From: a virus
Taxonomy: Duplodnaviria > Caudoviricetes
DNA length: 64,000 bases
Reading direction: 5' to 3' (one strand)
Virus record (IMG/VR): IMGVR_UViG_3300002052_000213
Location: 1,236-65,235 of that record
Positions 81 through 61,221 of the stretch are shown piece after piece. Position numbers and translations under genes: made by a program. A model generated the notes under the pieces. It saw only the letters and a list, made by a program, of their open reading frames with translations. It was not told where the DNA came from and searched no databases. Within the stretch, counting starts at the first letter, position 1. Each line of letters starts with the position of its first letter.

Positions 81-617
81 ATGGCAATTTGTAAAATATG
101 TGTTTCTCCTAACGTACATGAGTACGAGAAATTATATTTAGAGGATAAATATAGCTATACTGAATTATGGAAATATGCTAAAATACAAAAGAATGAAGAC
201 TTACCTTATGATAGCTTTAGAAGACATATGAAGCTTCATGTAAAAGCTATTATAGAAGCTGGTAAAGAATTTAGTGATTTGCAAGTAGTAAAGATGAAGG
301 AAGAAATAGACAAGACTATAGAAATATCTAAAAACCTTAGAATGACTCTAGAACCCTTACAATCCTTCTTACAAAATAAAATAGAAAATTTAAGTGATGA
401 AACGGATAGACAATATCTTGAAGTATTGTTTAGAGGACTATCTGAGATTAGACAGATATACAAATTAATATTAGAACATGAAGAACAATTAGATATGGGA
501 CCACAGATAGATAAAGATAGATTATATGATCAAGTAATAGAATGTTTAATAGAAGCTGAAATACCAGACATTTACATATTCAAATTTTCTAAAGCATGGG
601 AACAAAGAGAGAAATGA
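81..617 (+). CDS. Putative terminase small subunit
   Basis: Overlaps the TerL start; N-terminal CxxC...HxxxH, helical C-terminus; assignment mainly by position. Confidence 0.6.
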   Translation: MAICKICVSPNVHEYEKLYLEDKYSYTELWKYAKIQKNEDLPYDSFRRHMKLHVKAIIEAGKEFSDLQVVKMKEEIDKTIEISKNLRMTLEPLQSFLQNKIENLSDETDRQYLEVLFRGLSEIRQIYKLILEHEEQLDMGPQIDKDRLYDQVIECLIEAEIPDIYIFKFSKAWEQREK

Positions 618-2992
618 TTAATATAAAATTACCAGTAGGATTAACACTACAAGAGAGATTAACTTTATTGAAATGGAGAGATCCTGTAGTATTTTTTACT
701 GATGTAACTGGAGATCCTCCATTTAAATATCAGGAACAGATATTGAAAGAAATGCCTGACTTAAATAAATTAAGATTCCTAATAACTGCTGGTGGAAATA
801 CTGGTAAAACTAGATTATTAGCAGATATAGGATTATGGTCTCCTACTATATTAGGTCCAATGATAATGGGAAGATCATATTCTGTAATTATAGAGTCTGG
901 ATCTCAAGAACAATCTAGGATATTATATGATTATCTAAAGACTTGGATAGAGAGTAATGATTTAATAAGTAAATTAGTAAAAGGTGAACCTCTTAAAACT
1001 AATACAACATTTAAAGATGGTTCTTTCATAAAGGCTCTTCCTGCATCTTGGAAGTGCTATGATGAAAAAACTGAAATATTAACTAAAAGTGGATTTAAAA
1101 AATATAATGATTTAAAAATGGGAGAGTGTGTAGCTACATTAAATAAAGAAGGATTTCTAGAATGGCAAGTACCAATAAAATATTTTTCTTATAATTATGA
1201 TGGACAAATGCTCAAAATAAAAAATAGAACTATGGATATTCTTGTTACATGTAATCATAAAATGTTAGTTGCTAGAAATCATTCTGATAACTTTGAGTTA
1301 ATTGAAGCTAATAGTCTTCCAATAGGTGCTAAATTTAAAAGAACTGCTAAATGGAAGGGAAAGAAGAGAGAATATTTTATTATACCTTCGTACTCTGCCG
1401 ATCATGGAACTTATATTGAAGAATTCTCAAAGAAAAAAATACCAATGGAAATATGGGTAGAGTTTCTTGGTTATTATCTTTCTGAAGGAAGTGTAAAAAA
1501 GGATAAATGCCATACTATAATTTCACAATCTAAGTTAATAAATCATAATAAATTTGAGAAAATTAAAAAATGTTTAGATAAGCTTCCGTTCTCATATTCA
1601 ATATATAAAGAACAGGAATTTTCTATTAATTCCTCACAGCTTGGTCATTTCCTATATCCAACAATGGGTTCTTATAATAAGAAGATACCTAAAGAAATAA
1701 AAGAATTGGATACTATATATCTTGAAATACTTTTAGATGCTTTAATGCTAGGTGATGGAGTAACTAATGAAAAACAAAGATGGTATTCTACTGTTTCAGA
1801 ACAATTAAGAGATGATGTTATGGAAGTAGCTCTTAAGTTAGGGATAGGTAATTCATATTCTTTAATTGAGGAAAGAACAAATAAATATGGAAATAAATGT
1901 TCTAAACATTTTAAGATTTATCTACATAGACACAAAAATTCATATTATAAAGGACAAAAAGAGGTAGTAAATTATAATGGAAAAATATGGTGTCTTGAGG
2001 TTCCAAATAACACTCTGTTCATTAGAAGAAATGGTAAAACTCTATGGTCTGGTAATTCAATTTATGGACAACATAGTGATTTACTTATAATAGATGAAGC
2101 TGTAGAGGCAGGTGGAGATCTTATAGATGATAGTATAAGAGTAGTTGGTACATCTCTACATAATGGAAAAAGTGCAGGTAGAATAATTCTATCTTCTACT
2201 CCTCATAATTACATGAGTAAATTTGTTACTATGTGGGAAGATCATAAAAAGTACAATAATTGGCTAAGAAGAAGTTGGAGTGCTTTAGCTTGTCCTCTAT
2301 ATACTGAAGAAGTTATAGAAGAAGCTAAGAAGAAAGGTAAAATGTATTATGATATTTTCATATTGGGTAAGCCATATCCACTTATGGGAACTATGATAAA
2401 TATAGAAGATTTAAAGGATGCAACTAAAGGAAATCCTATATATGTATACAATAAAGAATTTGGATATACTGTTATGGGATTAGATTGGGGATTTGCTCCT
2501 GATCCTACTGCTTTAGTTATTATTCAAAGAAATGATAGACAAATAAGAGTATTTTACTATAAAGATTACCTTAGAGAAGATCCAGAGAAGATGTGTGACA
2601 CTATACAAACTTTAGTTAGAAATTATAATGTAGAAAGAATATTTAGTGATAGTCATAATAAACATATGAATGCCTTGCTAAGGAAAAGATCAGTTCCGTT
2701 ATTTGAAGTATCATTTAAAGGAGAGAAAGGATTGCTACAAGCTAATCTTACTTCATTATTTGAGAATGGAGTTATAAAAATACCAGAAGAATATATTAGA
2801 TTAATATGGCAAATAAGGCAATACACCTATGAAACTAAAGGTGGAGATGATTTCGTAGATGCTCTTATGTTAGCATGTAAAGATTATAAAACTCAGTATT
2901 TAACAGATGATATATATTATAAGAAATTCTCCAGTAGAAAGAAAAAGAAAAGTGGATATCAACAATGGGTAGAAAAATATTCTAAACGATAG
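596..2992 (+). CDS. terL: Terminase large subunit containing an intein
   Basis: Walker A AGGNTGKT, Walker B LLIIDEA, motif III SSTP, RNase-H-like nuclease GLDWG...DPTA...DDFVDA. Confidence 0.92.
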   Translation: MGTKREMINIKLPVGLTLQERLTLLKWRDPVVFFTDVTGDPPFKYQEQILKEMPDLNKLRFLITAGGNTGKTRLLADIGLWSPTILGPMIMGRSYSVIIESGSQEQSRILYDYLKTWIESNDLISKLVKGEPLKTNTTFKDGSFIKALPASWKCYDEKTEILTKSGFKKYNDLKMGECVATLNKEGFLEWQVPIKYFSYNYDGQMLKIKNRTMDILVTCNHKMLVARNHSDNFELIEANSLPIGAKFKRTAKWKGKKREYFIIPSYSADHGTYIEEFSKKKIPMEIWVEFLGYYLSEGSVKKDKCHTIISQSKLINHNKFEKIKKCLDKLPFSYSIYKEQEFSINSSQLGHFLYPTMGSYNKKIPKEIKELDTIYLEILLDALMLGDGVTNEKQRWYSTVSEQLRDDVMEVALKLGIGNSYSLIEERTNKYGNKCSKHFKIYLHRHKNSYYKGQKEVVNYNGKIWCLEVPNNTLFIRRNGKTLWSGNSIYGQHSDLLIIDEAVEAGGDLIDDSIRVVGTSLHNGKSAGRIILSSTPHNYMSKFVTMWEDHKKYNNWLRRSWSALACPLYTEEVIEEAKKKGKMYYDIFILGKPYPLMGTMINIEDLKDATKGNPIYVYNKEFGYTVMGLDWGFAPDPTALVIIQRNDRQIRVFYYKDYLREDPEKMCDTIQTLVRNYNVERIFSDSHNKHMNALLRKRSVPLFEVSFKGEKGLLQANLTSLFENGVIKIPEEYIRLIWQIRQYTYETKGGDDFVDALMLACKDYKTQYLTDDIYYKKFSSRKKKKSGYQQWVEKYSKR
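1055..2056 (+). mobile_element. Intein (334 aa) with LAGLIDADG homing endonuclease
   Basis: Begins CYDEKTEILT, block B VTCNH, LAGLIDADG-like FLGYYLSEG and LDALMLGDG, ends WSGN followed by +1 Ser. Confidence 0.92.
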
Positions 2993-2993
2993 A

Positions 2994-5357: not shown

Positions 5358-5358
5358 T

Positions 5359-6624: not shown

Positions 6625-6626
6625 AA

Positions 6627-8020: not shown

Positions 8021-8021
8021 T

Positions 8022-16197: not shown

Positions 16198-17064
16198 TTA
16201 CCACTGAGCTATACTGGTGTCGTCAACTATTTGAATACCTCTAGTTGCTGCTGTTGATGGCATAGCTATCCAAGTGAACTCAACTTCATATACATCATGT
16301 CCAGTGAATTCATCTGGTAGTTCATTAAACCATATAGAGTTACAGTATATTGATAAACTACCTCTTCCTAAGCCCATAACAGTTATAGTAAGTTCATGTC
16401 CACCCTGAGTAAAGTATTGGATATCTGCTTGTCCACATGTAATTCCACCAGTAACTTCCAATCTTTGTTCTCGAATCTTAGTTGGTTGTTTTCCTTGTCC
16501 ACATGCATATCTTGATTCTAGGTTGTTATTAAATTCTACATATCCACTTTGTACTTCAGTTAAAGCATTACCATCTAATTGTACAATTACAGATGCTCCT
16601 GTCATAGCTTCTACAGACCAATCAGTATCTCCAGCTACTGCTATAGTTTCAGCTATAGTTCCTAACATTTCCATTTCATAAGTAACGAATTCACCTGCTG
16701 AAAAATTAATTCTTAATCTGTCACACTTAGCTCCATGTATAGTTAAACTATCTGATTCTGATTCTGCACTTACAGTACATTCTGGAATATCTGTTAGAAC
16801 AGTAATTGTACTTGGATTAGCATCTAACCATGCAGGATTAACACTTCCTAAAGCCAAATAAAATGGTTTACCAGACACAAGTTCTGCTTCTATTCTTGCA
16901 GTATATTCTTTAGCTCCTTCAGTAATGTCAACATCAAATCTTGTTCCAGATGCTACTTCCTGCTCAATTAGATTAAATACTTCACTTGCTTCAAATGATA
17001 TTGGAAAGTTTACTATAGTTCCACCTAGTCCTGCTGCACCAGTAATACTAACTTTTCTTGTCAT
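16198..17064 (-). CDS. Major tail tube protein
   Basis: Beta-rich 288 aa; GAKCDRLRINF, FNNNLE, EVTGGIT motifs; position. Confidence 0.8.
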   Translation of the reverse strand: MTRKVSITGAAGLGGTIVNFPISFEASEVFNLIEQEVASGTRFDVDITEGAKEYTARIEAELVSGKPFYLALGSVNPAWLDANPSTITVLTDIPECTVSAESESDSLTIHGAKCDRLRINFSAGEFVTYEMEMLGTIAETIAVAGDTDWSVEAMTGASVIVQLDGNALTEVQSGYVEFNNNLESRYACGQGKQPTKIREQRLEVTGGITCGQADIQYFTQGGHELTITVMGLGRGSLSIYCNSIWFNELPDEFTGHDVYEVEFTWIAMPSTAATRGIQIVDDTSIAQW

Positions 17065-19540: not shown

Positions 19541-20671
19541 TTAGCTAACTGGTAAAGTGCTTGGGAACGTATTCTTTCCAGACATAACTAAACAGGCTGC
19601 TAGAGTATCTGTGATACCAAATCCTCTTTCTGCATAGAAGTAGTATGCAACCATGTCTTTCTCATAGACATCATCTCTGTAAGAACGTAGTTCTTCTTTG
19701 TGTACATCATATCCAAGTCTTGAAGTATCTACAACTATAGCACATCCTTCTGGAAGTCTCCTAGATTCAGTGATAACTTTTAGTCCCCATACCTTTCCTA
19801 TTTCTGCATTCATTAGTGGTTCTCTTCCACCATAAGCAGAAGCATCCAAGAAATTAACCTTGTCATCATATAATAGGCTAGGCATGTCATTCCAAGACAT
19901 CACTACAACATTAGGATCTCTACCATGAGAGATTAGCTTAGCTTTTCCTTTAAGGATACCCCAAGCGTTAATTCCAGTTTCTTGACTTCCTGGTTGAGCA
20001 CCAGTGATTGCAAGTAGATTTCTACCTGGTACTTGGTAGTGTATTGTATTAACTGCAGCTAGAGTTGAATACAGATATATGCTTCCTGCAGCATAATCTA
20101 TACCTTTGATAGTTCCTGCCATTGAAGTCTTGACAGAGTTTACTGTCCATACTGGAGCTGTCATAGGATATACTGAAGAGCCAGTAGCAAAACCTGTTAC
20201 CGTTTCTGCAGCTTGTTTGTTAGAAGCATATATTAGTTGGTAATATGCAGCATCATCTATTTGTTCCTTGTATTGAAGACCTACTTCATAGATGTTATCT
20301 TTTATAACATCTCTCATAGCAAACTTAATTGCTTCTCTAGTTATCTTCAACCAACCAGCAACTTTGTACACTCCAATTGTAGTTCCAGTGTAAGCTGTTA
20401 AACCTACTGTTGCTTTTAGACTTGTAACATCTTTACCTTCAATTGCACCTGCTGTAGTCTCTATAGTGAATCCACCTGCAGCATTAGCTGAGGGGAATAT
20501 CACTTCTTTACCTGGTTTGTTAAGGATATCTCTGTTTACTCTGTATAGTTGTGCCCAAGTAACTTTCTTGTGCACAATTTCCTCAAAAGTTGCAGCTATA
20601 ACTTCAGGAGTAATAATACCTACATCTGCAGCAGAAATTGACTCGCCTGTTAGTTCCTCTATGTCTAACAC
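19541..20671 (-). CDS. Major capsid protein (HK97 fold)
   Basis: GIITPEVIA, KVAGWLKITREAI, GKVWGLKVITES, YFYAERGFG pattern; GTG start with AGGTGA RBS. Confidence 0.88.
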   Translation of the reverse strand: MLDIEELTGESISAADVGIITPEVIAATFEEIVHKKVTWAQLYRVNRDILNKPGKEVIFPSANAAGGFTIETTAGAIEGKDVTSLKATVGLTAYTGTTIGVYKVAGWLKITREAIKFAMRDVIKDNIYEVGLQYKEQIDDAAYYQLIYASNKQAAETVTGFATGSSVYPMTAPVWTVNSVKTSMAGTIKGIDYAAGSIYLYSTLAAVNTIHYQVPGRNLLAITGAQPGSQETGINAWGILKGKAKLISHGRDPNVVVMSWNDMPSLLYDDKVNFLDASAYGGREPLMNAEIGKVWGLKVITESRRLPEGCAIVVDTSRLGYDVHKEELRSYRDDVYEKDMVAYYFYAERGFGITDTLAACLVMSGKNTFPSTLPVS

Positions 20672-32389: not shown

Positions 32390-33003
32390 TATGGTCCAAT
32401 ATTAGTAAACCCTTCTTTATTTAATATTTTAGTACATACTCCCTTTGCTCCACTATGCCAAGAAATAAATAATTTCATTTGAGGATTATTTCTTAACAAA
32501 TTTATCATTCCTGGTATAGCATATCTTTCTGCTCCTTGAATATCTAGTTTAATTAAATCTAAACGATCTTTAATTATTTCATCTAGTGCTATTACTCTAT
32601 ATTTACTCCAAGGAGGATATGTTCTACCTGGAGGTGTAGAATGTTGTAAATCAGATAATCCAAGACACAATGGTATTACATTTTTAAATCCATTAATAAA
32701 GGTAGCAATCATTAACCTAGTAAAATGTTTATAATATGGTTCAAAAGCATATACTATTCCTGTATTTTCCATTTTCTTAGCAGCTAAGAATGCATAATAT
32801 CCAGTTTGTGATCCACCATCTACCACTATCATATCCTTCTCTACTACACCTTTCCAAGATTCTGATTGTCTATTTTCCCATCTACCTGAATTTGCTATTG
32901 ATTTTTCACTTGATCCTTTACTAGTTTTAGAGAAGCAATATTTAATTCCAAAGTGTTCTATTATTTCATAATCATCTAGAATTGTATTTGAAATTTTATT
33001 CAT
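32374..33003 (-). CDS. FkbM-family methyltransferase
   Basis: VDGGSQTGYY, VYAFEP, LIKLDIQGAE. Confidence 0.85.
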   Translation of the reverse strand: MNKISNTILDDYEIIEHFGIKYCFSKTSKGSSEKSIANSGRWENRQSESWKGVVEKDMIVVDGGSQTGYYAFLAAKKMENTGIVYAFEPYYKHFTRLMIATFINGFKNVIPLCLGLSDLQHSTPPGRTYPPWSKYRVIALDEIIKDRLDLIKLDIQGAERYAIPGMINLLRNNPQMKLFISWHSGAKGVCTKILNKEGFTNIGPYWEKK

Positions 33004-33769
33004 TTAAATCAACTTCTAACCAAGGAATTTCCAATAGAGTTCTATATTGATGCAAATCTGGTCCATGACCTACATAACCATTCTCTTCAGGAAATCCTAA
33101 TGCTTCTCCATGATCTGAGCTTATTACTACTTTCTTATTCTTAGGAATTTCTTTTAATAAATTCTTAACTTCGTCTAATATCAATATCACATTGCTGATA
33201 TATCCTTCTCTACATTCATCTATGCTTAAATTTCCTCTTTTAACATAATCCCACATTATTCCCTGAAATCTCTTTCTTTCATCTATATTCATTTCCTGTA
33301 AATGTTTCTTTTCTTTGTTTTCTGTCCATTCTAAAAGAAGTCCCCTTCCTTTATTTCCTTGTGGATGTTCTAACCAAGGAAAGTGAGGTTGTAAATAATG
33401 AATTATTATTCTTTTATCTGGATATTTTTTAATTGTATTTATACCTATTCTAGTTATAGTATCTGGTCTTACTCCATTTAACTCTTCATCCCATCCTATA
33501 TCCCAAGCATCTACAATAGTAAAGAAATGCTCTCTATTTATTTTACTTAATTTAAAATTCGTAACCATAGGATTTCCAGATACATATATTAATTCAGGGT
33601 ATGGTTTAGTGAAGTTATCTCTTAACCACATCCAAGTTCCAGTATTAAGAGATTCTACTTTCTTTAATTTGCCTTTAATATTATTAAACATCTCAAATAC
33701 GTCATATCTCATAGCATCTAACAATATTAAAATATCCCATTTCTCTTTCATAACTTTTATTTTTTTCAT
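32996..33769 (-). CDS. Alkaline phosphatase/sulfatase-superfamily protein
   Basis: LLDAMRYD, HYLQPH, SSDHGE, GH, EIPW. Confidence 0.75.
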   Translation of the reverse strand: MKKIKVMKEKWDILILLDAMRYDVFEMFNNIKGKLKKVESLNTGTWMWLRDNFTKPYPELIYVSGNPMVTNFKLSKINREHFFTIVDAWDIGWDEELNGVRPDTITRIGINTIKKYPDKRIIIHYLQPHFPWLEHPQGNKGRGLLLEWTENKEKKHLQEMNIDERKRFQGIMWDYVKRGNLSIDECREGYISNVILILDEVKNLLKEIPKNKKVVISSDHGEALGFPEENGYVGHGPDLHQYRTLLEIPWLEVDLNE

Positions 33770-34332
33770 TTTAACATACCTATTTTAGTTTCCAATTCTT
33801 TTATAATATTTTTTACTTTATTTAAATTTTTAGATAATATAGTTATTCCATGCCTCTTACTATAAGAAGTAAATTCATATTTATATATATTAGAAAATAA
33901 TTCAATTGCCTTTAATTCTTTAGGGTTTATAGTTGTATTTTTCATCACTATAAACCCATCTTCTTTAAGAAGATTATGTATAAGTGTTAATTGTTTAAAG
34001 TAATGAGATTTATCTGAATTTAGATCTAAATCAACAAAGCACATATCTACTTGAATATCTAAATTAGGAAGAACATCTAAATCATATCCTTCTATAAATT
34101 TCCAATGTGGATGATTTTTATATCTTACAATAAATTGTTTTCCTCTTCCATTATCTATACTATATAATATTCCCTCTAACCCTAATAACATAATCCTTGT
34201 TGATCTACCAATACCTATTCCTAATTCTAAAATAGTACCATTTCCTATAGATTTAGCTAGTTCATATAATAGAATACCATGTTCATGTAAATAATCTCCA
34301 CCTATTCTACGAATTTTATTATAAATTTCCAT
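33766..34332 (-). CDS. Class I SAM-dependent methyltransferase
   Basis: ILELGIGIGRST, LYSID, LKEDGFIV. Confidence 0.8.
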   Translation of the reverse strand: MEIYNKIRRIGGDYLHEHGILLYELAKSIGNGTILELGIGIGRSTRIMLLGLEGILYSIDNGRGKQFIVRYKNHPHWKFIEGYDLDVLPNLDIQVDMCFVDLDLNSDKSHYFKQLTLIHNLLKEDGFIVMKNTTINPKELKAIELFSNIYKYEFTSYSKRHGITILSKNLNKVKNIIKELETKIGMLK

Positions 34333-35449
34333 TATCCCACTTCTTTACAGTTTTAATAATATAATGAACATCTTCATTAGTTAAATCTTGATGAATAGGA
34401 ATATGCATAATATTTTTTTCTGTTCTTTCAGTATTTAATAAATCCTTTCTTATTGGACCAAATATGGACCATTTATCATTCCTATGATAAAGTTGACTAA
34501 CTTCTATATTGCTTTTCTTCATATATTTAGCAAAGTTATTTCTAGCCCATACATGAATTGGGAATATCCAATAATTAGAAGTTTTATTCTGAGAATAATC
34601 TAATAAATGTACATTTCCTAAGAAGGATAATTCTTCAATATATCTTTCAGCAATTTCTTGTCTTCTTTTATATACTTCATCAAAATATTTTAAAGATTCT
34701 ATCCCAAATGTAGCTGTAATGTCATTCATGTTATATTTATATCCTAAATTATAGATATCTTTAGGAAATGTTCCTAAGTCTGTACTTACTCTATCTTTTT
34801 TATTTATACCAAACCATGAAAGAGTTTCTAGAAAATGTTTGATAAAGATATCATCTGTAACTACTGCTCCACCATCTCCACATGTAATAATCTTTACTAC
34901 TTGAAATGAGAAGCATACAAATTCATTTTTATAAAAGTTACCAATATATCTATTCTCAAATTTAGATCCTAAAGCTTGTGCTGCATCTTCTATAAGTACC
35001 AAATTATTTCTAATAGCTATTTTATGAAGTTCCCATAAATCACATGGATAACCAGCATAATGTACACACATTATTGCTTTAGTTTTATCTGTTATTCTAT
35101 GTTCTATATCTTTAGGATCTATATTTAATGTTTCATATTTTATATCAGCAAATACTGGTTTAGCATTTTGTTCTAATATGGAAGTGTTAGTAGCTTCCAT
35201 AGTCCAAGGAGTAGTTATTACTTCATCTCCTACTCCTACTCCTGCTACTGCTAAAGATAATCTTAAAGCACTAGTGCATGAATTAGTAAGAATTAAATAA
35301 GGAAATCTAAATTTATCTTCTAGTAATTCAGTAAAAAGTTTAGCCTTTTCTCCTGTGTTTAGCCATCCACTATCTATAGTTTTCTTTACTTCCTCACTAG
35401 CTTCTTTTGGGATGAATGGCGAGAACAATCTTATAGTATCTTTATGCAT
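34319..35449 (-). CDS. DegT/DnrJ/EryC1/StrS sugar aminotransferase
   Basis: NSCTSAL, GDEVI, IEDAAQALG, SFQVVKIITCGDGG (PLP lysine). Confidence 0.93.
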   Translation of the reverse strand: MHKDTIRLFSPFIPKEASEEVKKTIDSGWLNTGEKAKLFTELLEDKFRFPYLILTNSCTSALRLSLAVAGVGVGDEVITTPWTMEATNTSILEQNAKPVFADIKYETLNIDPKDIEHRITDKTKAIMCVHYAGYPCDLWELHKIAIRNNLVLIEDAAQALGSKFENRYIGNFYKNEFVCFSFQVVKIITCGDGGAVVTDDIFIKHFLETLSWFGINKKDRVSTDLGTFPKDIYNLGYKYNMNDITATFGIESLKYFDEVYKRRQEIAERYIEELSFLGNVHLLDYSQNKTSNYWIFPIHVWARNNFAKYMKKSNIEVSQLYHRNDKWSIFGPIRKDLLNTERTEKNIMHIPIHQDLTNEDVHYIIKTVKKWDNGNL

Positions 35450-36677
35450 TTTTAATTCTCCATTTATTAGATAAAATAAAATCTCTTAAATGATTAAAAT
35501 GTTCTGTTAATTCTTCACTACTACAGAAATCAGTTTCTATAACTGATTTAGAAGGATATCTAAAGAAATATTTAGAAAAATCTCTGGTAATAATTCTAAC
35601 TCCATATTTCTCTGGATTCTTCCATATATCACAACTAGGAAATGGGATAAATAATGTAACTGGAGCTTTATCTGGTTGAGTATCTATAACAAATTGTTTA
35701 GTTTTCTCTATAGTTTCCCATGTTTCACCTGGGAGTCCAGCCATTAAAAATAATTTTACTCCTATATTATATTCCTTAAGTATTTCAATAGCTTTTTTAG
35801 ATTGATTAACCGTTATTCCTTTATTCATTAATTTAAGTATACTATCATCTGCTGTTTCTATACCTAAGTTTACTTCTTTACATCCCATTCTAACTAACAT
35901 TTCACATATTTCATCATTTAAAGCATCTACTCTAGCTTGACATCTAAACAATATATGTAAAGATTCAAATACTAGAGTTAATTCTCTGAGTCTTTTTTTA
36001 TTCATAGTAAAATGATCATCTAATAAATCAAAATGTCTACAATTATATCTTTCAATTAAGAACTTTATCTCATTAGCAACATATTCTGTGCTATGAAATC
36101 TTACCGATTGAGGAATATTAGCACAGAAAGCACAGTTATATGGACAACCTCTAGATGTTATAATGGTAGTTGCAATTGGATCTTCATCATAAATAAATCC
36201 ATATCCGCCCCATACACTCTTAGTTACTATTCTATTATCTTTCATTAAATGTCTAGCTGGAAATGGAATAGAATCTATATTTTTAATACTTTCACCATAT
36301 ATTATACCTTTATTTCCATTAGCAATTAAATCTAATATTGTTTTTTCTCCATCTCCAACAATTATATTATCATAATATCCTAGAAAGTCTTCAGGTAGAT
36401 TACTAGCATGAGCACCACCTATAACTGAATTACCATCTCTTTTACTGAGATATTTTCCAATCTTCTTTGCATCCTCAGCTTCTGTAGTTGTTGCAGTTAC
36501 TCCGTATAAATCACCTTTGGGTATTAAATTAAGATTAGAATTTTCTCTTAAATCACATATTTTAACTCTATGACCTTCCTTCTCTAGTATTGCTCCTATA
36601 TACAATAAACCTAATGGGGGATATACTGTAGGTTCATTTAATAAAGGAGCTGGTGGAATTATTAGAATTATTTTCAT
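35442..36677 (-). CDS. Cobalamin-binding radical SAM enzyme
   Basis: PPLGLLY, GGAHA, SRGCPYNCAFC, GIET, GLPGET. Confidence 0.9.
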   Translation of the reverse strand: MKIILIIPPAPLLNEPTVYPPLGLLYIGAILEKEGHRVKICDLRENSNLNLIPKGDLYGVTATTTEAEDAKKIGKYLSKRDGNSVIGGAHASNLPEDFLGYYDNIIVGDGEKTILDLIANGNKGIIYGESIKNIDSIPFPARHLMKDNRIVTKSVWGGYGFIYDEDPIATTIITSRGCPYNCAFCANIPQSVRFHSTEYVANEIKFLIERYNCRHFDLLDDHFTMNKKRLRELTLVFESLHILFRCQARVDALNDEICEMLVRMGCKEVNLGIETADDSILKLMNKGITVNQSKKAIEILKEYNIGVKLFLMAGLPGETWETIEKTKQFVIDTQPDKAPVTLFIPFPSCDIWKNPEKYGVRIITRDFSKYFFRYPSKSVIETDFCSSEELTEHFNHLRDFILSNKWRIKNA

Positions 36678-36688
36678 TTATATCCACA

Positions 36689-37660
36689 TTAGAAATTGAG
36701 TATACTTTTCCAATAACTTTCATTATTTTTGTACCATTGAATAGTCTTCTTTATACCATTTGCTAAAGTTTCTTTCGGTTTCCAATTCAATTCATATCTC
36801 ATCTTATTTCCATCTAGAGCATATCTGAAATCATCTTTTAATCTATACCCAGAGAATCCTTTAAATAAATATTCCTTATTCATTAATTTTAATATTAAAT
36901 TAACTATATCAGGTACTGATTTATATGTAGCTGGTGGTATATGATATATTTCTCCCACATTTCCCTTAGTTGCTATTACATCCATAGCATTACTAGAATC
37001 TCCTACATATATCCATCCTCTAATAGACTCTCCTTTATATAATGTGAATGATTCTTCAGATAGAGCCTTAGTAATTATTTTAGCTATTAATTTCTCTGGG
37101 TGTTGATATGGACCAAACATATTCATAGATCTTACAAATACTACTGGAACTTTAAAACACTCACTATAAGATCTACAATACATTTCTGCAGAAGCTTTAG
37201 AAGCTGAGTAAGGATTCTGAGGATAAAATCTACTATCTTCTTTATAATATACGCCTAATGGTGCATCACCAAATATCTCATCTGTACCCATATAGATAAA
37301 TAATGGTTTCTTTTTTAGATATCTAATTATTTCTAATAGTGAAACTGTGCCTAAGATATTATTTCTTATGAACTCTTCGACACACATAAAACTTTTATCT
37401 ACATGTGTAGAAGCTGCTAAATGATATACTATCTCAGTATTGTTTCCTATGGTTTCCTGAAATAGTAGTTTATTATTAATATCTCCAGATATAAACTTAT
37501 AATTAGGATTTTCTTCTAAATCTTTCATATATATAGGATTAGAATCATAAGTACTTTTATCATAGTTAATAATTATCTTATCTTTATATGTATCTAATAA
37601 ATATCTTATTAGATTAGTACCAAAGAATCCTGAACCACCTGTTACAATTATTTTATTCAT
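36689..37660 (-). CDS. rfbB: dTDP-glucose 4,6-dehydratase
   Basis: TGGSGFFG, HLAASTHVDKS, TDEIFG, PYSASKA, FGPYQHPEKLI. Confidence 0.9.
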   Translation of the reverse strand: MNKIIVTGGSGFFGTNLIRYLLDTYKDKIIINYDKSTYDSNPIYMKDLEENPNYKFISGDINNKLLFQETIGNNTEIVYHLAASTHVDKSFMCVEEFIRNNILGTVSLLEIIRYLKKKPLFIYMGTDEIFGDAPLGVYYKEDSRFYPQNPYSASKASAEMYCRSYSECFKVPVVFVRSMNMFGPYQHPEKLIAKIITKALSEESFTLYKGESIRGWIYVGDSSNAMDVIATKGNVGEIYHIPPATYKSVPDIVNLILKLMNKEYLFKGFSGYRLKDDFRYALDGNKMRYELNWKPKETLANGIKKTIQWYKNNESYWKSILNF

Positions 37661-38007
37661 TTAACTTTACTCCTAAGTTCTTCATCAGTTATTGTTTCTT
37701 TATTAGGTTCCCACCATTCCATTATCCAATTATCAGCTTTAGATTCTAGAAGATGCGGAATATTGGGAGGGCAAACTATCATGTTTCCTTCTTTTAATTC
37801 AAATCTTATATCCTCTTTAGGATATTTATGAATAAATATTACTTCACCTTTAAGTATCACTCTGTACTCTAAAACATTATGTGAGTGCCCACCTCTTAGA
37901 TATCCTTTCTTAGTAAAGAATATCATAAGCTCTTGTAAAGGATCATCTTGTAACCTAAAAGAATAAACTTCTCCTCTCTTATCACTTTGTTCTAATTTAA
38001 ATCTCAT
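37657..38007 (-). CDS. Cupin, possible sugar 3,4-ketoisomerase (QdtA/FdtA-like)
   Basis: DKRG, RGGHSH, PPNIPH. Confidence 0.65.
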   Translation of the reverse strand: MRFKLEQSDKRGEVYSFRLQDDPLQELMIFFTKKGYLRGGHSHNVLEYRVILKGEVIFIHKYPKEDIRFELKEGNMIVCPPNIPHLLESKADNWIMEWWEPNKETITDEELRSKVK

Positions 38008-38008
38008 A

Positions 38009-38755
38009 TTATTTCACTCTAAACCAAGGTACTTTCCTTAAAGCTTCATTCACTATTCCTTTACCATGACCAAATGTTTCACCTTTATATCCTAACATTT
38101 CTCCATGATCTGATGTTATATATACAACCTTATCAGTATTAATATTCTCAATAAGTTTTTTAACCTCTTCTAAGACAATTAAAAAATTAGCTATGTATCC
38201 TTCTCTCACTTCTTCTACATTTACTTTATCTCCAACATATTGCCATACCATTCCTTCAAGTTTCTGTAATTCTTCTCTAGTTAGAAATCTTTTATTTTTA
38301 TCTTGTAAATAATCTCTCAGATTACCTCTTCCAACTCTTTTCTTAAATGATAGAAAGGGAGAATGTGGTTGCAGATAATGTATTATAAATCTCTTATCTG
38401 GATTCTCATCCATAGCTTGAATACTTGCTCTAGTAACTGAAGAAGGATGTACTGCATTTATTTTTTCATCCCAAGCCCAATCCCATACTTCTATGAGTCT
38501 ATAAAATGGATTTTCAATTTTTAACTTATTGTTTAACTTCCATTCTGATACCCAAGCATTTCCTGATACATATACTATATCTTTACATTCTCTATCAAAG
38601 TTATTATAAACCCATTCCTCTGTACAAGAACCTAAAGAATATCTAGGTTCTAATGTTCCAGATATATCATTGAATAATTCAAATACATCATATCTACATG
38701 CATCTAATATTATGAGAATATCCCATTCTTCATCTAATATTTTAAGAGCTTTCAT
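38009..38755 (-). CDS. Alkaline phosphatase/sulfatase-superfamily protein (paralog of 32996-33769)
   Basis: ILDACRYD, HYLQPH, TSDHGE, KVPW. Confidence 0.75.
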   Translation of the reverse strand: MKALKILDEEWDILIILDACRYDVFELFNDISGTLEPRYSLGSCTEEWVYNNFDRECKDIVYVSGNAWVSEWKLNNKLKIENPFYRLIEVWDWAWDEKINAVHPSSVTRASIQAMDENPDKRFIIHYLQPHSPFLSFKKRVGRGNLRDYLQDKNKRFLTREELQKLEGMVWQYVGDKVNVEEVREGYIANFLIVLEEVKKLIENINTDKVVYITSDHGEMLGYKGETFGHGKGIVNEALRKVPWFRVK

Positions 38756-39492
38756 TTTAGTGCTTCCATAAGTCTCTTTTTTCTAGGTAAAATATAACCT
38801 TCTTTTACAACATCTTCTAAAGGAAATACAGGCATATTTTTCATAAATTCTATCAAGTCTTCAAAAGTATTTACATTATATTCATCATATAAACTTCTAA
38901 CATTAGGTAACTTCTTTAATTTCCCTTGAAGTATCTCTAATCTTTTTCTATAATGTTCATTGTCTATATTTCTAAAATGTACTATAATATGTTTTATTTT
39001 TTTAAATATAGGAGATGTACCACTAAATCTAGCATCTATCATATCATGAGTTTCGTTTCTAGGATTATAATATCTCAATTTATCTACTGGTCCTCCCCTA
39101 AATTGTGGATCAGGGTATCTTTCTTTCTTACATTTATCTTGATAAACAATAGTTGCTCTTGCTGACACTGGAAATGCGTCAGATTCCTTTTCCCATAAGT
39201 CTTTTAATTCATCATATATATCTACATTAATCATTTCATCAGAGTCTAGATAATAAACATGAGAAGTTTTACATTCTCTAATAAGAAAATTATAAGCATT
39301 TATCCATTTACCTGTTATTTGTGGTCCTGTAAATACTGTAACATTATCCTGTTTTTCTAAATATTCTAATGTTCCATCAGTAGAATTTGAGTCAAGAACA
39401 ATTATATCATCAAATTTCTTTAAACTCTCTATACAGTGTTTAATAGAGTATATACAATTATATGTTAAAACTATACCAGTAATTGTTATCAT
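38752..39492 (-). CDS. Glycosyltransferase family 2
   Basis: VLTYN, LDSNSTDGT, LDSDE. Confidence 0.88.
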   Translation of the reverse strand: MITITGIVLTYNCIYSIKHCIESLKKFDDIIVLDSNSTDGTLEYLEKQDNVTVFTGPQITGKWINAYNFLIRECKTSHVYYLDSDEMINVDIYDELKDLWEKESDAFPVSARATIVYQDKCKKERYPDPQFRGGPVDKLRYYNPRNETHDMIDARFSGTSPIFKKIKHIIVHFRNIDNEHYRKRLEILQGKLKKLPNVRSLYDEYNVNTFEDLIEFMKNMPVFPLEDVVKEGYILPRKKRLMEALK

Positions 39493-40817
39493 TTTTTAGT
39501 TTCATTCCTTTCTATTACTTCATCTAAATCTTCTATTGTCTTTTTCATTTTCTTTTTAATTTGTTTCTTTTTGATTTTCTTATATAATTTTCTAAATTCC
39601 TCTTGCTTCTTCTTATCTTCCATATTTCTTTTCTTTTGTTCTAGTTTAGGAACTTCTTCTAAGAATGGAATCCAATAATTTTCCACTACTCTATCCCAAT
39701 CATAATCCATAGCTAACTTTCTAGCTTTGTTGCCAAATGTAATTATTTTCTTAGGATGATTATATGCATCTTCTATAGTATCTGCTATTGAATATACATC
39801 TGGTAAAGCAGTACAAGCATTAATAGCTGTGGTTAATATATTTTCTCCACTACAGAAATTTTTAACTAACCATCCACATTTACCATAATCTACCATTTCA
39901 CTCATACTGGAGAAATCAGTTACTATGTTAGGTCTTCCACATGCATTAGATTCCATAATAGGAAGACCAAATCCTTCTCTCTTAGATGGGTATAATTGAA
40001 AATCAAATGAATTATACATTAAACACATTTCCTCATCTGTTAATCTAATATGAGACAAAACTGGATCAGTAAATCTAACTATTTCATCTAATCCTTGCTT
40101 ATGCACAAATCTTGGTAAAGGTAACCCTCTAGTGTCTGTTGGATTAGTGTGACAATATACAAATATATCTTTTCTAGCATCTGGGTTATTATCAAAAAAT
40201 AATCTTAATGCAACAAAACATCTAGCCCATGATTTTCTATCTTCTTTATCACTATTAGCAGCTACTCTACCAATTACTACTGCTTCTGGAGGAAATCTAG
40301 TTTCTTTTCTAGCTTCTTTTATAGGTATTGGATGATATGTTTTAACATCTACTCCATGAGGAACATAATAACTATCTATTCCTACATTCTTTAATTCCTC
40401 CATTTGAAACTTACATAGAGCTAGAACATAGTTATATTCCTTAGTTAAATTAATTAATTCCTCTGGATAGTTAGTATGATCTTGTGGAGAATATAAAACA
40501 TTTATAAAAGGCATCTTAGGAAACCAAGGAAATGCCCACCAATCTGTATGTAATATACACATATCTGGTCTAAGTCTCTTAGCATGTAATTGACAAGATA
40601 CTTTACCAAATTGACCTATCTTGCTAGGTAAATGAGGTACTCCTTCAATTTTCATAGTACCTCCTGGCTCTAAACCATAATATGCTGACACAAATACATT
40701 ATATCCTCTTTGTATTATTCTACTAGTTACATTTCTAGTTACATTACCATATCCACTTTTAACAAATGCAGCTACAGAGTGCCATAAAATTCGTAATAAT
40801 TCTTTTTCATTAGACAT
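39489..40817 (-). CDS. Glycosyltransferase family 4 (GT-B)
   Basis: SGYG, VPHGVD, PSKREGFGLPIMESNACG. Confidence 0.9.
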   Translation of the reverse strand: MSNEKELLRILWHSVAAFVKSGYGNVTRNVTSRIIQRGYNVFVSAYYGLEPGGTMKIEGVPHLPSKIGQFGKVSCQLHAKRLRPDMCILHTDWWAFPWFPKMPFINVLYSPQDHTNYPEELINLTKEYNYVLALCKFQMEELKNVGIDSYYVPHGVDVKTYHPIPIKEARKETRFPPEAVVIGRVAANSDKEDRKSWARCFVALRLFFDNNPDARKDIFVYCHTNPTDTRGLPLPRFVHKQGLDEIVRFTDPVLSHIRLTDEEMCLMYNSFDFQLYPSKREGFGLPIMESNACGRPNIVTDFSSMSEMVDYGKCGWLVKNFCSGENILTTAINACTALPDVYSIADTIEDAYNHPKKIITFGNKARKLAMDYDWDRVVENYWIPFLEEVPKLEQKKRNMEDKKKQEEFRKLYKKIKKKQIKKKMKKTIEDLDEVIERNETKK

Positions 40818-40859: not shown

Positions 40860-41159
40860 TCATATCTCTACTATAATTTTTCCCCATATACCTTTAAAAG
40901 TATCTAAATCATACTTTGTTAGAATTTCATCTAACTCTTCCCATGAGGAAAAATTCTTATTATCACTTTGCACTAATCCAGCTTTAGTTATTAAAGCATA
41001 TGTCTGAAAGTCTTCTGCTACCTTTACTATGATATTTGATATTAATATTAGAAACCCACCAATTTCTTTATCTTTGTATTTCTTTCTATTTTTTACATAC
41101 TTTACTACTTCTTCAAATGTTTTCTTATTCCAGAACATATAATGATGTTCAACTCTCAT
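40860..41159 (-). CDS. Hypothetical protein
   Basis: Coupled ORF. Confidence 0.55.
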   Translation of the reverse strand: MRVEHHYMFWNKKTFEEVVKYVKNRKKYKDKEIGGFLILISNIIVKVAEDFQTYALITKAGLVQSDNKNFSSWEELDEILTKYDLDTFKGIWGKIIVEI

Positions 41160-41431
41160 TTATAATGCTCCTCCAACATATCTAACATATTAAATATTGG
41201 AACTTTATCTTCTAATGCTCTCTCTGCTAACTCTGGATTTATTTGTGATAGTACTTCTACAATGAATTTCTTTCTTGCTTTACCATATGCTATCTGAATA
41301 CTAGATTCTGATTCTAATACATCATCATCTAGTATTTCTTTGCATATCATTAGCTCTCTATATCTCCTATCAGATAGATTATCCAAGTAATTTGGATTTC
41401 TTATTTTATCAGCTAAAGATAAATTCTTCAT
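41156..41431 (-). CDS. Hypothetical protein
   Basis: Coupled ORF. Confidence 0.55.
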   Translation of the reverse strand: MKNLSLADKIRNPNYLDNLSDRRYRELMICKEILDDDVLESESSIQIAYGKARKKFIVEVLSQINPELAERALEDKVPIFNMLDMLEEHYK

Positions 41432-41443
41432 GTTTACTCAACT

Positions 41444-41668
41444 TTATAGTAAATTGTCAACCTTTTTAAGATTAGTTTTACTTCTTAATAATCTCTCATA
41501 TCTCTTTCTATTTGCAACTCTAGGACATTTATGTTTTCTATGATGATAATACTTACGTTTCTCAAGCTTCCCTCTTCTTGATACTTTTTCCTCTTCTCTA
41601 AATCCTCTTTTGAACTGTAATCTATCTCTCATTTTACCTGCTTTACTTAATGATCCATGACTAGGCAT
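41444..41668 (-). CDS. rps30e: Ribosomal protein eS30 (S30e) homolog
   Basis: MPSHGSLSKAGKMR N-terminus and K.PRVANRKRYER C-terminal motif. Confidence 0.85.
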   Translation of the reverse strand: MPSHGSLSKAGKMRDRLQFKRGFREEEKVSRRGKLEKRKYYHHRKHKCPRVANRKRYERLLRSKTNLKKVDNLL

Positions 41669-41848
41669 TGTCTATTTTACCATCCTTTCTAATAATGAAA
41701 TAATTCTATTTAACAAATTACATACATCATTTAATGTTTTTGTTGTATATTCTTCTGCACATATTGGACAATAATCTACTCCTACAAAGTCTCCATGTTT
41801 TAAACATTTAATCCATTTATATTCTTCATTATTAAATATATTTTCCAA

Positions 41849-42998: not shown

Positions 42999-43148
42999 TC
43001 ACTTCTTATCTAATTCTTGTATAACTTGTATAAGGTACTTTTGGAATTTACAATCTGAAGGACAATCAACTAGTGAGTAAGGACATAAATCTAAACACAC
43101 ATACTTGCTTATTTTCTTTAAGATTGCATATATTTCCTTATTGCTCAC
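42999..43148 (-). CDS. Small Cys-containing protein (49 aa, not in ORF track)
   Basis: GTG-start ORF with C..LC....DC...C filling the gap. Confidence 0.4.
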   Translation of the reverse strand: MSNKEIYAILKKISKYVCLDLCPYSLVDCPSDCKFQKYLIQVIQELDKK

Positions 43149-43482
43149 TTTTATACTCCTCTAACAATTTTTTCCACTCTTCAACCCCTTTAAACCCATA
43201 TTTATCCTTTCTATTCCAATTCTTATATAGTTTATCCTTAAATACTTTATCAGGATCTAATTCAGGACAATAGAGCCTCCAAGCATCTAGACACATAAAG
43301 AATATATCTATTATTTCTTCTGCTACATCCTCTTTAGGTAATCCCTTTCTCCATTTACTAGCTACTTCTCCTATCTCTGAACTAGCATTAAGTAATTTTA
43401 TAGGAACAAATATAGGATGATTTCCATGTCCTTTAGCTTTTACTAATTTACCTATTTCTTCCATCATTTCTTTAAGATGCAT
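43138..43482 (-). CDS. MazG-like nucleotide pyrophosphohydrolase
   Basis: SEIGEVA...AEEIIDI...K..KN..R. Confidence 0.8.
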   Translation of the reverse strand: MHLKEMMEEIGKLVKAKGHGNHPIFVPIKLLNASSEIGEVASKWRKGLPKEDVAEEIIDIFFMCLDAWRLYCPELDPDKVFKDKLYKNWNRKDKYGFKGVEEWKKLLEEYKSEQ

Positions 43483-50958: not shown

Positions 50959-51247
50959 GTAAAACTAATGTTATAATTATACCACCAGCAACAGCTCCAG
51001 AAATTGAAAATATTAATTCTCTCCAATCTCTTCTTTTTTTCTTATTTTCATTTTTAATTTCTTTCATATATGAATTAAAATTATCTGTACATGAGTCCAT
51101 TTTATCTGACAATGTAGTAAATTTATCTTCAATCATTTCAGTTATTCTTAGAAATCTCTCATTACAGAATTTAGCTGTTATAAAATGTGGATTAGTTGGG
51201 TTTTCATAATCAACACTATTTTCATCACTCATGATATTCACCAGCAT
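50942..51247 (-). CDS. Coiled-coil protein with C-terminal TM (holin-like)
   Basis: Coiled coil, basic patch, single C-terminal hydrophobic helix. Confidence 0.5.
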   Translation of the reverse strand: MLVNIMSDENSVDYENPTNPHFITAKFCNERFLRITEMIEDKFTTLSDKMDSCTDNFNSYMKEIKNENKKKRRDWRELIFSISGAVAGGIIITLVLHAFGV

Positions 51248-53697
51248 TATACAAATTTAGTAAGAGGTACATATCCTTTTACTTCCTTCTCCAATTTATC
51301 AATATTTATATCAATTAAAGATAATATATCCTCACTTTTATTTATTACTGTTTTCTCTTTCATTATTTCATAATCTACAGTAAATCCTTCTGGTATTTCT
51401 TCTACTTTATTAAATGCTATTGCATCTACTTTATGTTGTCTAGTTCCTTCTCTAGTTGTTACTGAAAACATAGTTGGATATTGTTCTGGTATATCCTTAA
51501 TATATGCTAAGTAAAATCTCTTACCAACTTCTAATGGAATATGTAGGATATCCCTAGAATATAGAAATGCTTTAAGATGGTATGATGGAGTTTTATAATC
51601 TTCTGGTTTCTGAGTTAATCTTAATGGCATAGCTATGTCCTGTATAGTTTTACTGTTAAAATTATCACAATAATCTAGAAATGTTCTCTCTACTTCATAT
51701 GAAGTAGCACCATTTAAAATTTTCTTAAGTAATATTTCTTGTACTTCTTGAGTAACTACAGCTTGATCTCGTTTTACTAACTCTAGTCCTTTCCACTCAT
51801 AAGTTCCATCTTCTCTCTTTCCACCATATCTTTTCTTAGTTAATAAAGCTAATGTAGTAAATAATTTATCTTTCTCTAATTCTAATGAACTAGAAGTTTT
51901 TAATTTTTCTTTAAGTAAATTTTCTACAAATTTATTTAACATAGAAATTATCTTATCTATTTCATTAGGATTATTTATATGTATAAATAAACTATCTGTG
52001 TCTCCATACACTACAGTATATCCTAATTTCTCTAGATATTCATATGTTGCTTCTTGAATCATTCTTCCTACATAAGTAATAGCTGCTGCTATTCTAGGTT
52101 CATATAATCTAGCTGCTGGTTTCCTTTCTTTCCAATTACCAGAGAATCCGAACTTACCATATTCTGCATTTATTAGAGACTTTAATCCATCTGCTACTGC
52201 CTTATGATATTTATGTTCTTTACTATCTGAAGGATATTGTTTAGCTAATTTCTTATGAGGTTTTCTTAATGGTTCTAATTTATCAAATGCTTTAATAACA
52301 AAAGAAGGAACAGTAGATGTTTGAAACATTCCCTGTAAATTTTCTATTTCAAAGAATGTTCCTTCAAATTTTCCTGGAATAAAAGTAGTATATCCTATAT
52401 TTAATACTCTAACAATAGAAGGATACATAGCTGACCAATCTACTACTAAAACATTAGTGTATTTACCAGTTTTACATTTGAATACTTTAGCTCCTTCATA
52501 ATCTATATGTTGATAATATCTTCTACTAGGAAGAACTACATTCTCTTCCTTAGCATTTCTTAAATCTAAAATATCAGCTACTCTTGATCTATAAATTGTA
52601 TCTGAAAGATTGCATCCAACTGTTCTTCTAATAGTATCAAAATAAGTGAATAATTGTAACTCTTCATTTAATATTTTAACTAATTCCACATCTCTTAAGT
52701 TTCTTTTAAATACTTTCTTATAATCTTCTCTCCACATATCAGGTACATTTTCATTATGGTAAAATGCATCTAAGTTAAGTTCTTTTTTAGCTATAAATTC
52801 TAATGTTTCAAATTTTTGTTTTCTCAATGTGGTTCTATACATTTCTCCTATATCTAAAATCTGTAATCCAGATATCTTAGCTCCATCTCCAAATATTCTA
52901 GCTATATTCATAGGAGATAATCTTCTAGGATTAAGTTTTAATGCTCTCATTCTACCTATAGTATATTTCATGTCCCAAGGAGAGAATGTAATAATAACAT
53001 CTGGTTGTATAATGTCAAATAAATTAATTAATTTAATTAGTAACTCTTCTTCTGATTTCAAATGGTATAAATTTATTTTCTTACCTTTTTCTATCAGAAT
53101 TTTTTCAAGTATCTTTTTATTTATTTTCTTAGTAGATAGTATATGATATTCATCTGTATACTCATCATATATTCCATATACTATTATTTCTCCTCTAAAG
53201 TTATCTATGTCTTCTTCGTTTTCATAATCAACTTCTATATCTATTATTAATTTCTTAAATCTAGATGGAGCATCTATTGGTCCCATAATTTCTTTAGTGT
53301 AGATGCTGTATTCTATACCAGTATAAATTAATAAATCTATTAAAAATCTTAGAGGAAACAATATATCTGCTTCATAACTTTTAACGTTTATATCTCTTAA
53401 TAATTTCTTTAATGAACCAACTTGAGGAGGAGTAAAAGTATATACTCTGGTTAATCTATTTCCAGATAAATCTCTATATCCTCTCTGAGCTTCTTTAACA
53501 TAATAATATTTGTCTTGTATAATTTTATAATCTTTATTCTGCATATAAAAATAAGGAATAAACCAATCAACTAAAACTTCTATTCTATTAAAATTAGAAT
53601 CTCTACAAAAAAGATGGAGAAGTGGATGTCTATATCTATCAATGATAGTGTCTTGTCTTTCTATAGAATAATCTACAGTGCAAACTGATAATTTCAT
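51247..53697 (-). CDS. polB: Family B DNA polymerase
   Basis: ExoI DIEVD, motif A DWSAMYPS, motif B KSLINAEYG, motif C YGDTDS, KKRY, KGLE. Confidence 0.95.
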   Translation of the reverse strand: MKLSVCTVDYSIERQDTIIDRYRHPLLHLFCRDSNFNRIEVLVDWFIPYFYMQNKDYKIIQDKYYYVKEAQRGYRDLSGNRLTRVYTFTPPQVGSLKKLLRDINVKSYEADILFPLRFLIDLLIYTGIEYSIYTKEIMGPIDAPSRFKKLIIDIEVDYENEEDIDNFRGEIIVYGIYDEYTDEYHILSTKKINKKILEKILIEKGKKINLYHLKSEEELLIKLINLFDIIQPDVIITFSPWDMKYTIGRMRALKLNPRRLSPMNIARIFGDGAKISGLQILDIGEMYRTTLRKQKFETLEFIAKKELNLDAFYHNENVPDMWREDYKKVFKRNLRDVELVKILNEELQLFTYFDTIRRTVGCNLSDTIYRSRVADILDLRNAKEENVVLPSRRYYQHIDYEGAKVFKCKTGKYTNVLVVDWSAMYPSIVRVLNIGYTTFIPGKFEGTFFEIENLQGMFQTSTVPSFVIKAFDKLEPLRKPHKKLAKQYPSDSKEHKYHKAVADGLKSLINAEYGKFGFSGNWKERKPAARLYEPRIAAAITYVGRMIQEATYEYLEKLGYTVVYGDTDSLFIHINNPNEIDKIISMLNKFVENLLKEKLKTSSSLELEKDKLFTTLALLTKKRYGGKREDGTYEWKGLELVKRDQAVVTQEVQEILLKKILNGATSYEVERTFLDYCDNFNSKTIQDIAMPLRLTQKPEDYKTPSYHLKAFLYSRDILHIPLEVGKRFYLAYIKDIPEQYPTMFSVTTREGTRQHKVDAIAFNKVEEIPEGFTVDYEIMKEKTVINKSEDILSLIDINIDKLEKEVKGYVPLTKFV

Positions 53698-60994: not shown

Positions 60995-61221
60995 TAACTA
61001 CCCTTTATTTTATAAAAGATAAAACTAAAGCAAAGATACTTGAAATTAGAAGTGGTAGAAGAGCTAGAAGTAGATTAGAAGCTTTAGGATTAACTTATGG
61101 AGAAATAATTGAGAAAGTATCTTCTCTAGAAGGAGGTCCTATTTTAATTAAAGTTAGAGAAAGTGTTATAGCTCTTGGAAGAGGAGAAGCATTAAAAGTA
61201 TATGTAGAGGTATCAGAATGA
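60991..61221 (+). CDS. feoA: FeoA-domain (SH3-like) protein
   Basis: RLEALGL..G...GPILIKVRESVIALGRGEA.KVYV. Confidence 0.88.
   Translation: MITTLYFIKDKTKAKILEIRSGRRARSRLEALGLTYGEIIEKVSSLEGGPILIKVRESVIALGRGEALKVYVEVSE

Follow-up and report, generated by a model that had tools for sequence, protein, structure and literature searches.

The window analysed here, a 64,000-base stretch, is part of a 65,235-base IMG/VR virus record that is linear and has a CheckV completeness of 56%. On its minus strand, within a run of co-directional viral genes, lies a gene for a 74-aa homologue of ribosomal protein eS30 with an expanded middle. The gene, its parts and its immediate neighbours are as follows.

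41444..41668, minus strand: long eS30 homologue gene, 74 aa; ATG start, stop codon at 41444-41446
41627..41668, minus strand: codons 1-14, MPSHGSLSKAGKMR, N-terminal tail; 12 of 14 residues as in the Saccharolobus copy (L018)
41525..41626, minus strand: codons 15-48, expanded linker of 34 aa versus 15 (alignment A6)
41495..41524, minus strand: codons 49-58, PRVANRKRYE, C-terminal motif, aligning to PRVRNRKEYE of PDB 9fhl_e
41447..41494, minus strand: codons 59-74, RLLRSKTNLKKVDNLL, C-terminal tail, divergent from cellular copies
41672..41848, minus strand: upstream neighbour, 58-aa Cys/His-containing ORF ending 3 nt before the eS30 start
41156..41431, minus strand: downstream neighbour, 91-aa ORF of no known family, 12 nt past the eS30 stop

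The two strings by which an earlier note on this DNA had recognised the gene, HGSLSKAGKMR and PRVANRKRYER, were both present, at aa 4-14 and aa 49-59, respectively. The protein is strongly basic (26 K/R in 74 aa), and the ...GQNW end of many cellular copies is missing from its C-terminal tail. The upstream ORF had no Pfam or PHROG family. The description of the flanking genes in the earlier note as viral, and not as a ribosomal operon, was found to hold, as the neighbours are viral or unannotated and no ribosomal operon is present. The G+C content of the eS30 gene (30.2%) and its GC3 (17.3%) fell within the range of the virus, which in 30 other genes was 29.3 ± 2.9% and 14.5 ± 3.5%, respectively. 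A sigma-70 scan around eS30, the consensus of which does not cover archaeal promoters, found fewer promoter-like sites than in shuffled sequences, and the same scan found no terminator near the gene.

Homology of the encoded protein to eS30

The window's protein was matched by Pfam PF04758 (Ribosomal_S30) with an E value of 0.014 and 16 bits (curated cut-off 27) and by NCBIfam NF006817 (S30e) with an E value of 3.9e-8 and 33 bits (curated cut-off 75). Both scores are below the curated family cut-offs, and the insert splits the match. When all PDB chains were searched with phmmer at E<=10, all 39 sequences returned were eS30. The best match was the archaeal S30e 9fhl_e (52 aa, E 1.5e-4), which aligned in two pieces, to query residues 1-16 and 43-61, and the middle of the query is therefore without a partner. 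Profile-profile comparison of 22 long forms with 25 named cellular copies (hhalign) gave a probability of 99.4% and an E value of 6.3e-22 over 48 aligned columns, with a single gap over the insert.

The N-terminal motif M-P-[ST]-H-G-S-L-[ST]-K-A-G-K-V-R is represented in the window by MPSHGSLSKAGKMR, which aligns to residues 1-16 of 9fhl_e, and the C-terminal motif P-R-[VI]-x-N-R-x-x-Y was found as PRVANRKRY at aa 49-57. Across 51 family members, M1, H4, G5, L7, K9, A10, G11 and R54 were conserved in at least 90% and P49 was invariant; these same residues are the ones conserved in cells. On sequence grounds the homology to eS30 is firm despite the sub-threshold scores of the single profiles, and the earlier note's assignment, for which an HMM search had been its first check, was upheld. 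A tblastn search of the window's eS30 against GenBank phage records gave no match, and the eS30 family is not present in PHROG.

The virus contig and the integrity of the eS30 locus

Genes with identifiable viral functions were located elsewhere in the window.

596..2992, plus strand: terminase large subunit with a LAGLIDADG intein (Terminase_6C, 2e-8; LAGLIDADG_3; PHROG terminase families)
16198..17064, minus strand: tail tube protein (Pfam Phage_tube_2, E 3.3e-15)
19541..20671, minus strand: major head protein (phrog_544, E 1.2e-12; Pfam Phage_capsid_4, E 1.2e-5)
51247..53697, minus strand: family B DNA polymerase (Pfam DNA_pol_B, 2.9e-38)

RadA, an ATP-dependent ligase, ThyX and a large sugar-modification cluster are also encoded. 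The best tblastn matches of the DNA polymerase were tailed viruses of Halorubrum and Haloarcula, the nearest named relatives, at 23-25% identity; the head protein had no tblastn match in GenBank phage records. The terminase intein comprises approximately 380 residues, and the tblastn matches of the terminase to phage records had to be set aside since they covered the intein part only (residues about 145-525), in ribonucleotide reductase and other intein-bearing genes. When 67 large and 23 small ORFs from the window were screened, no ribosomal-protein family other than eS30 was recognised, and no tRNA genes were found in the window. The contig is that of a tailed virus of archaeal type, and the eS30 gene belongs to it.

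Genes between 2994 and 55651 are encoded by the minus strand and those flanking this stretch by the plus strand, and both gene orientation and GC skew flip sign near 56 kb (about 56000) and again near 2-3 kb. The sugar-modification cluster, 10 kb in length (30724-40817, minus strand), adjoins eS30 on the lower-coordinate side and contains genes for a PAPS reductase, FkbM and other methyltransferases, a DegT aminotransferase, a B12-radical SAM protein, GDP-mannose dehydratase/epimerase, a cupin, a sulfatase-like protein, GT2 and GT4. Likewise, in the complete virus L005 a glycosyltransferase/methyltransferase/epimerase cluster (13-9842) ends directly before eS30. A small FeoA-domain protein is encoded in the window at 60991-61221 (plus strand, E 2.8e-14) and in the unrelated eS30 virus L002 at 8985-9287 (E 9.3e-12).

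The 4-kb stretch around eS30 was present in six public runs from five studies, which were marine sediment or seawater metagenomes with no RNA run among them. In four of these six runs, which belong to three studies and carry no flag as a possible origin of this DNA, eS30 and both neighbours were bridged by single contigs, 1,116-1,684 bases in length. Three of these contigs had no differences from the window and one had a single difference, at 41076, outside eS30; none had joints, and the eS30 gene sequence was invariant across the four runs. The locus is therefore not a chimera, the flaw that the earlier note had named as fatal to its reading. An artefact in any form, be it a chimera of the assembly, cellular DNA mistaken for viral or an ORF arising by chance, draws on the linear state of the record and its completeness of just 56%. 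It is very improbable given the bridging contigs, a gene composition equal to that of the virus, viral hallmark genes on the same contig and homologues on nine other virus contigs.

Some distance from the gene, behind position 43354, contigs of the same four runs show an insertion of two bases (CA), which has full depth in X3 and X4 and roughly half the depth in X5 and X6. The inserted bases lie inside the ORF at 43138-43482 (minus strand) and would shift its frame. The contigs have loose ends near 43354 and may derive from a relative.

The expanded linker

R14 and P49 are separated by 34 residues, among them 17 K/R/H and 5 D/E, and the matching stretch in the Saccharolobus copy is 15 aa. When the spacing between two conserved residues, Lys9 and the Pro preceding R-x-x-N-R, was measured, the window's eS30 gave 40. 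In 76 cellular copies from GTDB species genomes the spacing was 21 in 75 (15 of them read by eye, as the regular expression caught an earlier proline) and 23 in one; two further cellular copies failed the regular expression and were left out. The viral protein thus carries 19 extra residues, and only four of 238 measured sequences had a longer spacing.

The linker is not variable throughout. The consensus of alignment A6 reads FRE...G....K..H.KKHK.PR, and F23-R24-E25, G33 and H43-R-K-H-K-C48 of the window's linker are conserved family positions. An aromatic residue occurred within the linker of 65 of 69 long forms versus none of 78 cellular copies. AlphaFold2, run with the family alignment, placed strands at residues 24-29 and 35-40, forming a beta-hairpin, followed by a helix from residue 49. 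The pLDDT was 75-83 over the linker-hairpin block and up to 89 when the helix was included, with a mean of 72.9 and a pTM of 0.34. The hairpin is thus a prediction of moderate confidence. A Foldseek search of the model against the PDB returned no match at E<=0.001, as is expected because eS30 is a small extended ribosomal protein. The earlier note had described a longer K/R/H-rich middle; the length was confirmed (34 versus 15 aa), but the conserved positions and the predicted hairpin indicate that the stretch is not mere basic filler.

The long eS30 family and the viruses that carry it

A HMMER search of 1.84 billion cluster representatives, with the window's protein and one close relative as queries, returned 50 proteins at E<=0.001, most of them 60-95 aa in length and with an expanded linker. 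A second round with the alignment of those 50 returned 334 proteins at E<=0.001, and among the best 120 of these the short 53-aa forms were S30e of Bathyarchaeia, Nitrososphaerota and other Thermoproteota. Long eS30 (spacing 25 or more) amounted to 69 measured sequences, nine from virus contigs and 60 of unknown origin. Every feature of the family's linker occurs in the window's protein: R/K-E preceded by an aromatic residue, then a Gly, and H-x-[KR]-K-H-K immediately ahead of P-R. As judged from the alignments, the expanded middle is a trait of a family of at least 69 sequences and not a peculiarity of this virus.

Scans of IMG/VR took up the survey of viral databases proposed in the earlier note and added nine contigs of archaeal-virus type that bear an eS30-like gene (L002, L005, L006, L007, L008, L009, L010, L175 and L180). 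Two other candidates, L003 and L004, were rejected as spurious since they rested on an off-frame YHHRKHK word inside a tail-fibre gene. At least two of the nine, at 79 and 59 kb, represent complete genomes and have terminal repeats. In six of the contigs (all but L009, L175 and L180) the neighbours of eS30 included PolB, RadA, ribonucleotide reductases, TFIIB, TBP, Clp protease and many ORFans, and no ribosomal operon was found next to eS30 in these six. A head protein detectably related to the window's was found in only two of the nine contigs (26% and 30% identity), so the eS30 gene is spread over unrelated tailed-virus lineages. Among the stretches recovered in a metagenome scan (at least 599, mostly short Bathyarchaeia-type copies), one long form was present in the matches listed, L093, which is the same virus as L002.

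The functional residues of eS30 are conserved across the ten virus contigs. In L008/L009, the only pair similar enough for such a comparison, pN was 0.18 compared to a pS of 0.82 over 73 codons, with synonymous sites saturated. This indicates purifying selection on eS30 in these two, which are other viruses than the window's, and it bears indirectly on the window's own gene, which showed no variation.

The same contigs gave some further observations. A DUF6899 protein is encoded directly upstream of eS30 in L007 (2050-2406) and about 1.7 kb upstream in L008 (7969-8262), and none was found in the window. A TFIIB homologue is present in L006 (4713-5600) and a TBP homologue in L010 (13866-14387), so that components of archaeal transcription are encoded by those viruses as well. 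Among the IMG/VR records, a giant-virus MAG (L181, 9986-10198 on a 115.8-kb contig) encodes an eS30 of eukaryote type, with the short linker QTPKVDKQEKKK... and no insert.

Cellular copies and the origin of the insert

A GTDB genome scan, restricted to the pattern MP[ST]HGSL[ST]K, gave at least 165 confirmed matches, and the best 80 of these all had the short linker. The 80 loci were from Bathyarchaeia, Sulfolobales, Desulfurococcales, Nitrososphaerales and one MAG labelled Methanobacteriota. This last locus (L025, genome G002) is a Sulfolobales-type eS30 on a 5.9-kb contig and could reflect contamination during binning instead of an eS30 of Euryarchaeota. A six-frame search with the long-form profile was made in 401 Thermoproteota genomes, drawn evenly from the phylum of a Bathyarchaeia genome. 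It matched in 356 of them with a top score of just 40 bits. Among the matches listed (213 further ones lie beyond these), the full-length ones spanned 47-54 aa, which is the short form, and many others covered the N-terminal 19-20 model positions only. The long insert was found in none of the 76 measured cellular Thermoproteota copies and in none of the matches listed from the 401 further genomes.

A tree of 146 rows and 54 columns was built by a quick IQ-TREE search, with 92 short sequences of unknown origin left out. The 76 cellular copies were on one side of a branch with an SH-aLRT of 95, and the long/short state required two changes. The inner branches are weak because the tree has so few columns. 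The nearest row to the window was P0005, a 70-aa protein on an 85.8-kb contig, and the window was placed in a group of 20 rows (support 85) with the virus loci L005 and L175. The phylogeny against archaeal eS30 that the earlier note had called for thus splits the long forms from the 76 Thermoproteota copies.

The split, with its two long/short changes, would also be expected if the insert were not a viral invention and the gene had been captured from a host lineage with a long eS30, most likely Asgard archaea of the Loki type. The virus would then merely supply a host-like eS30, either for dosage or for ribosome upkeep after host shut-off. Two Atlas look-ups placed a 66-aa cluster named 'Ribosomal protein S30' beside the query (score 0.92-0.93); this cluster is 91% Archaea, most commonly Promethearchaeota. 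Moreover, three long sub-groups (P0052-56/26/58, P0018/57/156 and P0046/59/61) still terminate in the cellular-type ...GQ(N/R)(W/Y), and none of the three turned up in IMG/VR. Because of the archaeal Atlas cluster and these GQNW-ended sub-groups outside IMG/VR, the insert may be Asgard-inherited. The marine sediment habitat fits Lokiarchaeia, and their G+C content is compatible with the virus's 29%.

However, the length of the 66-aa cluster may come from a longer tail and not from a longer linker, and the same look-ups ranked first a 71-aa cluster that is 87% viral. The Atlas is not discriminating here, as the window's protein and P0052 fell to the same two neighbouring clusters. The P0052 group sits on short contigs of at most 7.6 kb, and the window's protein is 34-42% identical to six of its members (alignment A2), with the GQNW tail lost. 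Taken together, we regard capture of a long host eS30 as possible but doubtful. If Asgard hosts do share the long form, the insert tells nothing about remodelling.

Probable host of the virus

To our knowledge, eS30 is one of three small-subunit proteins that are shared with eukaryotes by TACK and Asgard archaea only. The distribution given in the earlier note, in which the protein occurs in TACK and Asgard archaea and is missing from Euryarchaeota, agrees with the table in PMC9932298 and with PMC11698992, and these sources report it as absent from Nanoarchaeota as well. Because of this absence from Euryarchaeota and Nanoarchaeota, the host is probably a TACK or Asgard archaeon, and one of marine sediment. 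The earlier note had proposed a ribosome incorporation test in a Sulfolobales host. At 29% G+C, and with its sequence coming from metagenomes of marine sediment and seawater, the virus is unlikely to have Sulfolobales as its natural hosts. A viral eS30 is of use in restricting the range of candidate hosts for sediment viruses that have not been cultured.

Proposed role of the viral eS30

The eS30 of S. solfataricus is located within the mRNA entry channel, where it touches h16, and its Pro2 rests against h44 next to the A site; codon-anticodon pairing in eukaryotes is stabilised by a histidine of the eS30 tail (both PMC11698992). The best explanation for the viral gene, which we consider reasonably probable, is that it is a virus-borne, selectively maintained long eS30 that is built into the host 30S subunit and changes how the ribosome engages mRNA or factors. 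This explanation starts from the observed homology, the anatomy of the insert, its viral context, its conservation across viruses and its absence from the sampled Thermoproteota, and from these we infer expression, ribosome incorporation and any effect on translation.

Most likely, the viral eS30 would be made during infection and built into the host 30S at the normal eS30 site, at helix h16 and the mRNA entry channel. The retained N-terminal tail, with Pro2 and His4, would reach h44 beside the A site, and the extra 19 residues, with their predicted beta-hairpin, would protrude at the mRNA entry side. Occupancy of the eS30 site together with a new surface at the entry side is suggested because both anchors are kept almost unchanged with the hairpin between them. 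By analogy with what has been proposed for phage bS21, altered engagement of mRNA or factors would favour or protect viral translation. Under capture of a long host eS30, as set out above, ribosome binding would be the same, and what differs is where the insert comes from and what it signifies. The earlier note had also suggested a relation of eS30 to the frameshift and non-AUG starts of this genome, for which this analysis gave no supporting evidence.

The long eS30 could also be a virus-specific version passed between unrelated tailed viruses of TACK and Asgard archaea, with the hairpin, placed at the mRNA entry channel, making virus-specialised ribosomes. We put this forward tentatively, as a possibility that falls short of being probable. 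If true, the long eS30 would be a small-subunit, archaeal counterpart of phage bS21.

In a different use of the protein, it would no longer be ribosomal and would act as a basic nucleic-acid binder (in genome condensation or as an RNA chaperone), or else shut off host translation as a decoy, by obstructing either 30S assembly or the site of eS30. Its very basic composition, the profile scores under the thresholds and the divergent C-terminal tail are consistent with such a role. Moreover, the assembly factor Sas10 mimics eS30 at h16 (PMC9932298), so that occupancy of the eS30 site can serve other uses. However, the N-terminal tail and PRxxNR are the most conserved parts across very divergent viral copies, and the sole known job of the N-terminal tail is at h44 and the A site, which a general DNA binder would not need. 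A non-ribosomal role is accordingly improbable, and a long eS30 built into the host 30S remains the reading that we favour.

A viral eS30 family with a defined insertion is a natural experiment on the mRNA entry channel and decoding site, and through the long eS30 the idea that archaeal viruses specialise ribosomes can be put to a concrete test.

Comparison with known systems

Cellular archaeal eS30, such as that of S. solfataricus (9fhl chain e), resembles the viral protein in its tail MPSHGSL(T/S)KAGK(V/M)R, in PRVxNRKxYE and in being small and very basic. In contrast, its linker is 15 aa compared to the viral 34 aa with aromatic-R-E, a Gly turn and HxKKHK, and the viral copy has another C-terminal tail, sits among viral genes and misses both cut-offs.

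Among virus-encoded ribosomal proteins, the bS21 and bL12 of phages (Mizuno et al. 2019, PMC6375957) are alike in being small viral ribosomal proteins at functional ribosome sites, with a proposed use in biasing or maintaining translation. They are unlike in that the protein, the domain of life and the ribosome site are all different. Phage ribosomal proteins can enter host ribosomes (PMC8651126, citing Mizuno et al.). The sole eS30 in the available part of Mizuno et al. is an antisense fau copy in a murine retrovirus. The giant-virus eL40 (PMC11499249) and the eS30 of L181 are likewise virus-encoded ribosomal proteins of eukaryote/archaea type, but their hosts are eukaryotic and the L181 protein, unlike the window's, has the short eukaryotic linker without the insert.

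The closest parallels in tailed archaeal viruses are the eL21 (L21e) of haloarchaeal hafunaviruses, described as the first ribosomal protein of archaeal viruses (Liu et al. 2021, PMC8651126), and the bL19 of a Bathyarchaeia virus, added by Duan et al. (2023, PMC10541130), where L21e is named as previously the only one. A 2026 survey of proviruses reported S6e, L15, L15e and L30 (PMC13573593). The available portions of these three papers do not mention eS30, and a full-text literature search, as far as the texts were available, found no report of it in an archaeal virus. Both eL21 and bL19 share with the window's protein their place in a tailed archaeal virus and differ in belonging to the large subunit. 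The viral eS30 would extend the ribosomal proteins of archaeal viruses, namely eL21, bL19 and the few that are provirus-encoded, to the decoding side of the small subunit.
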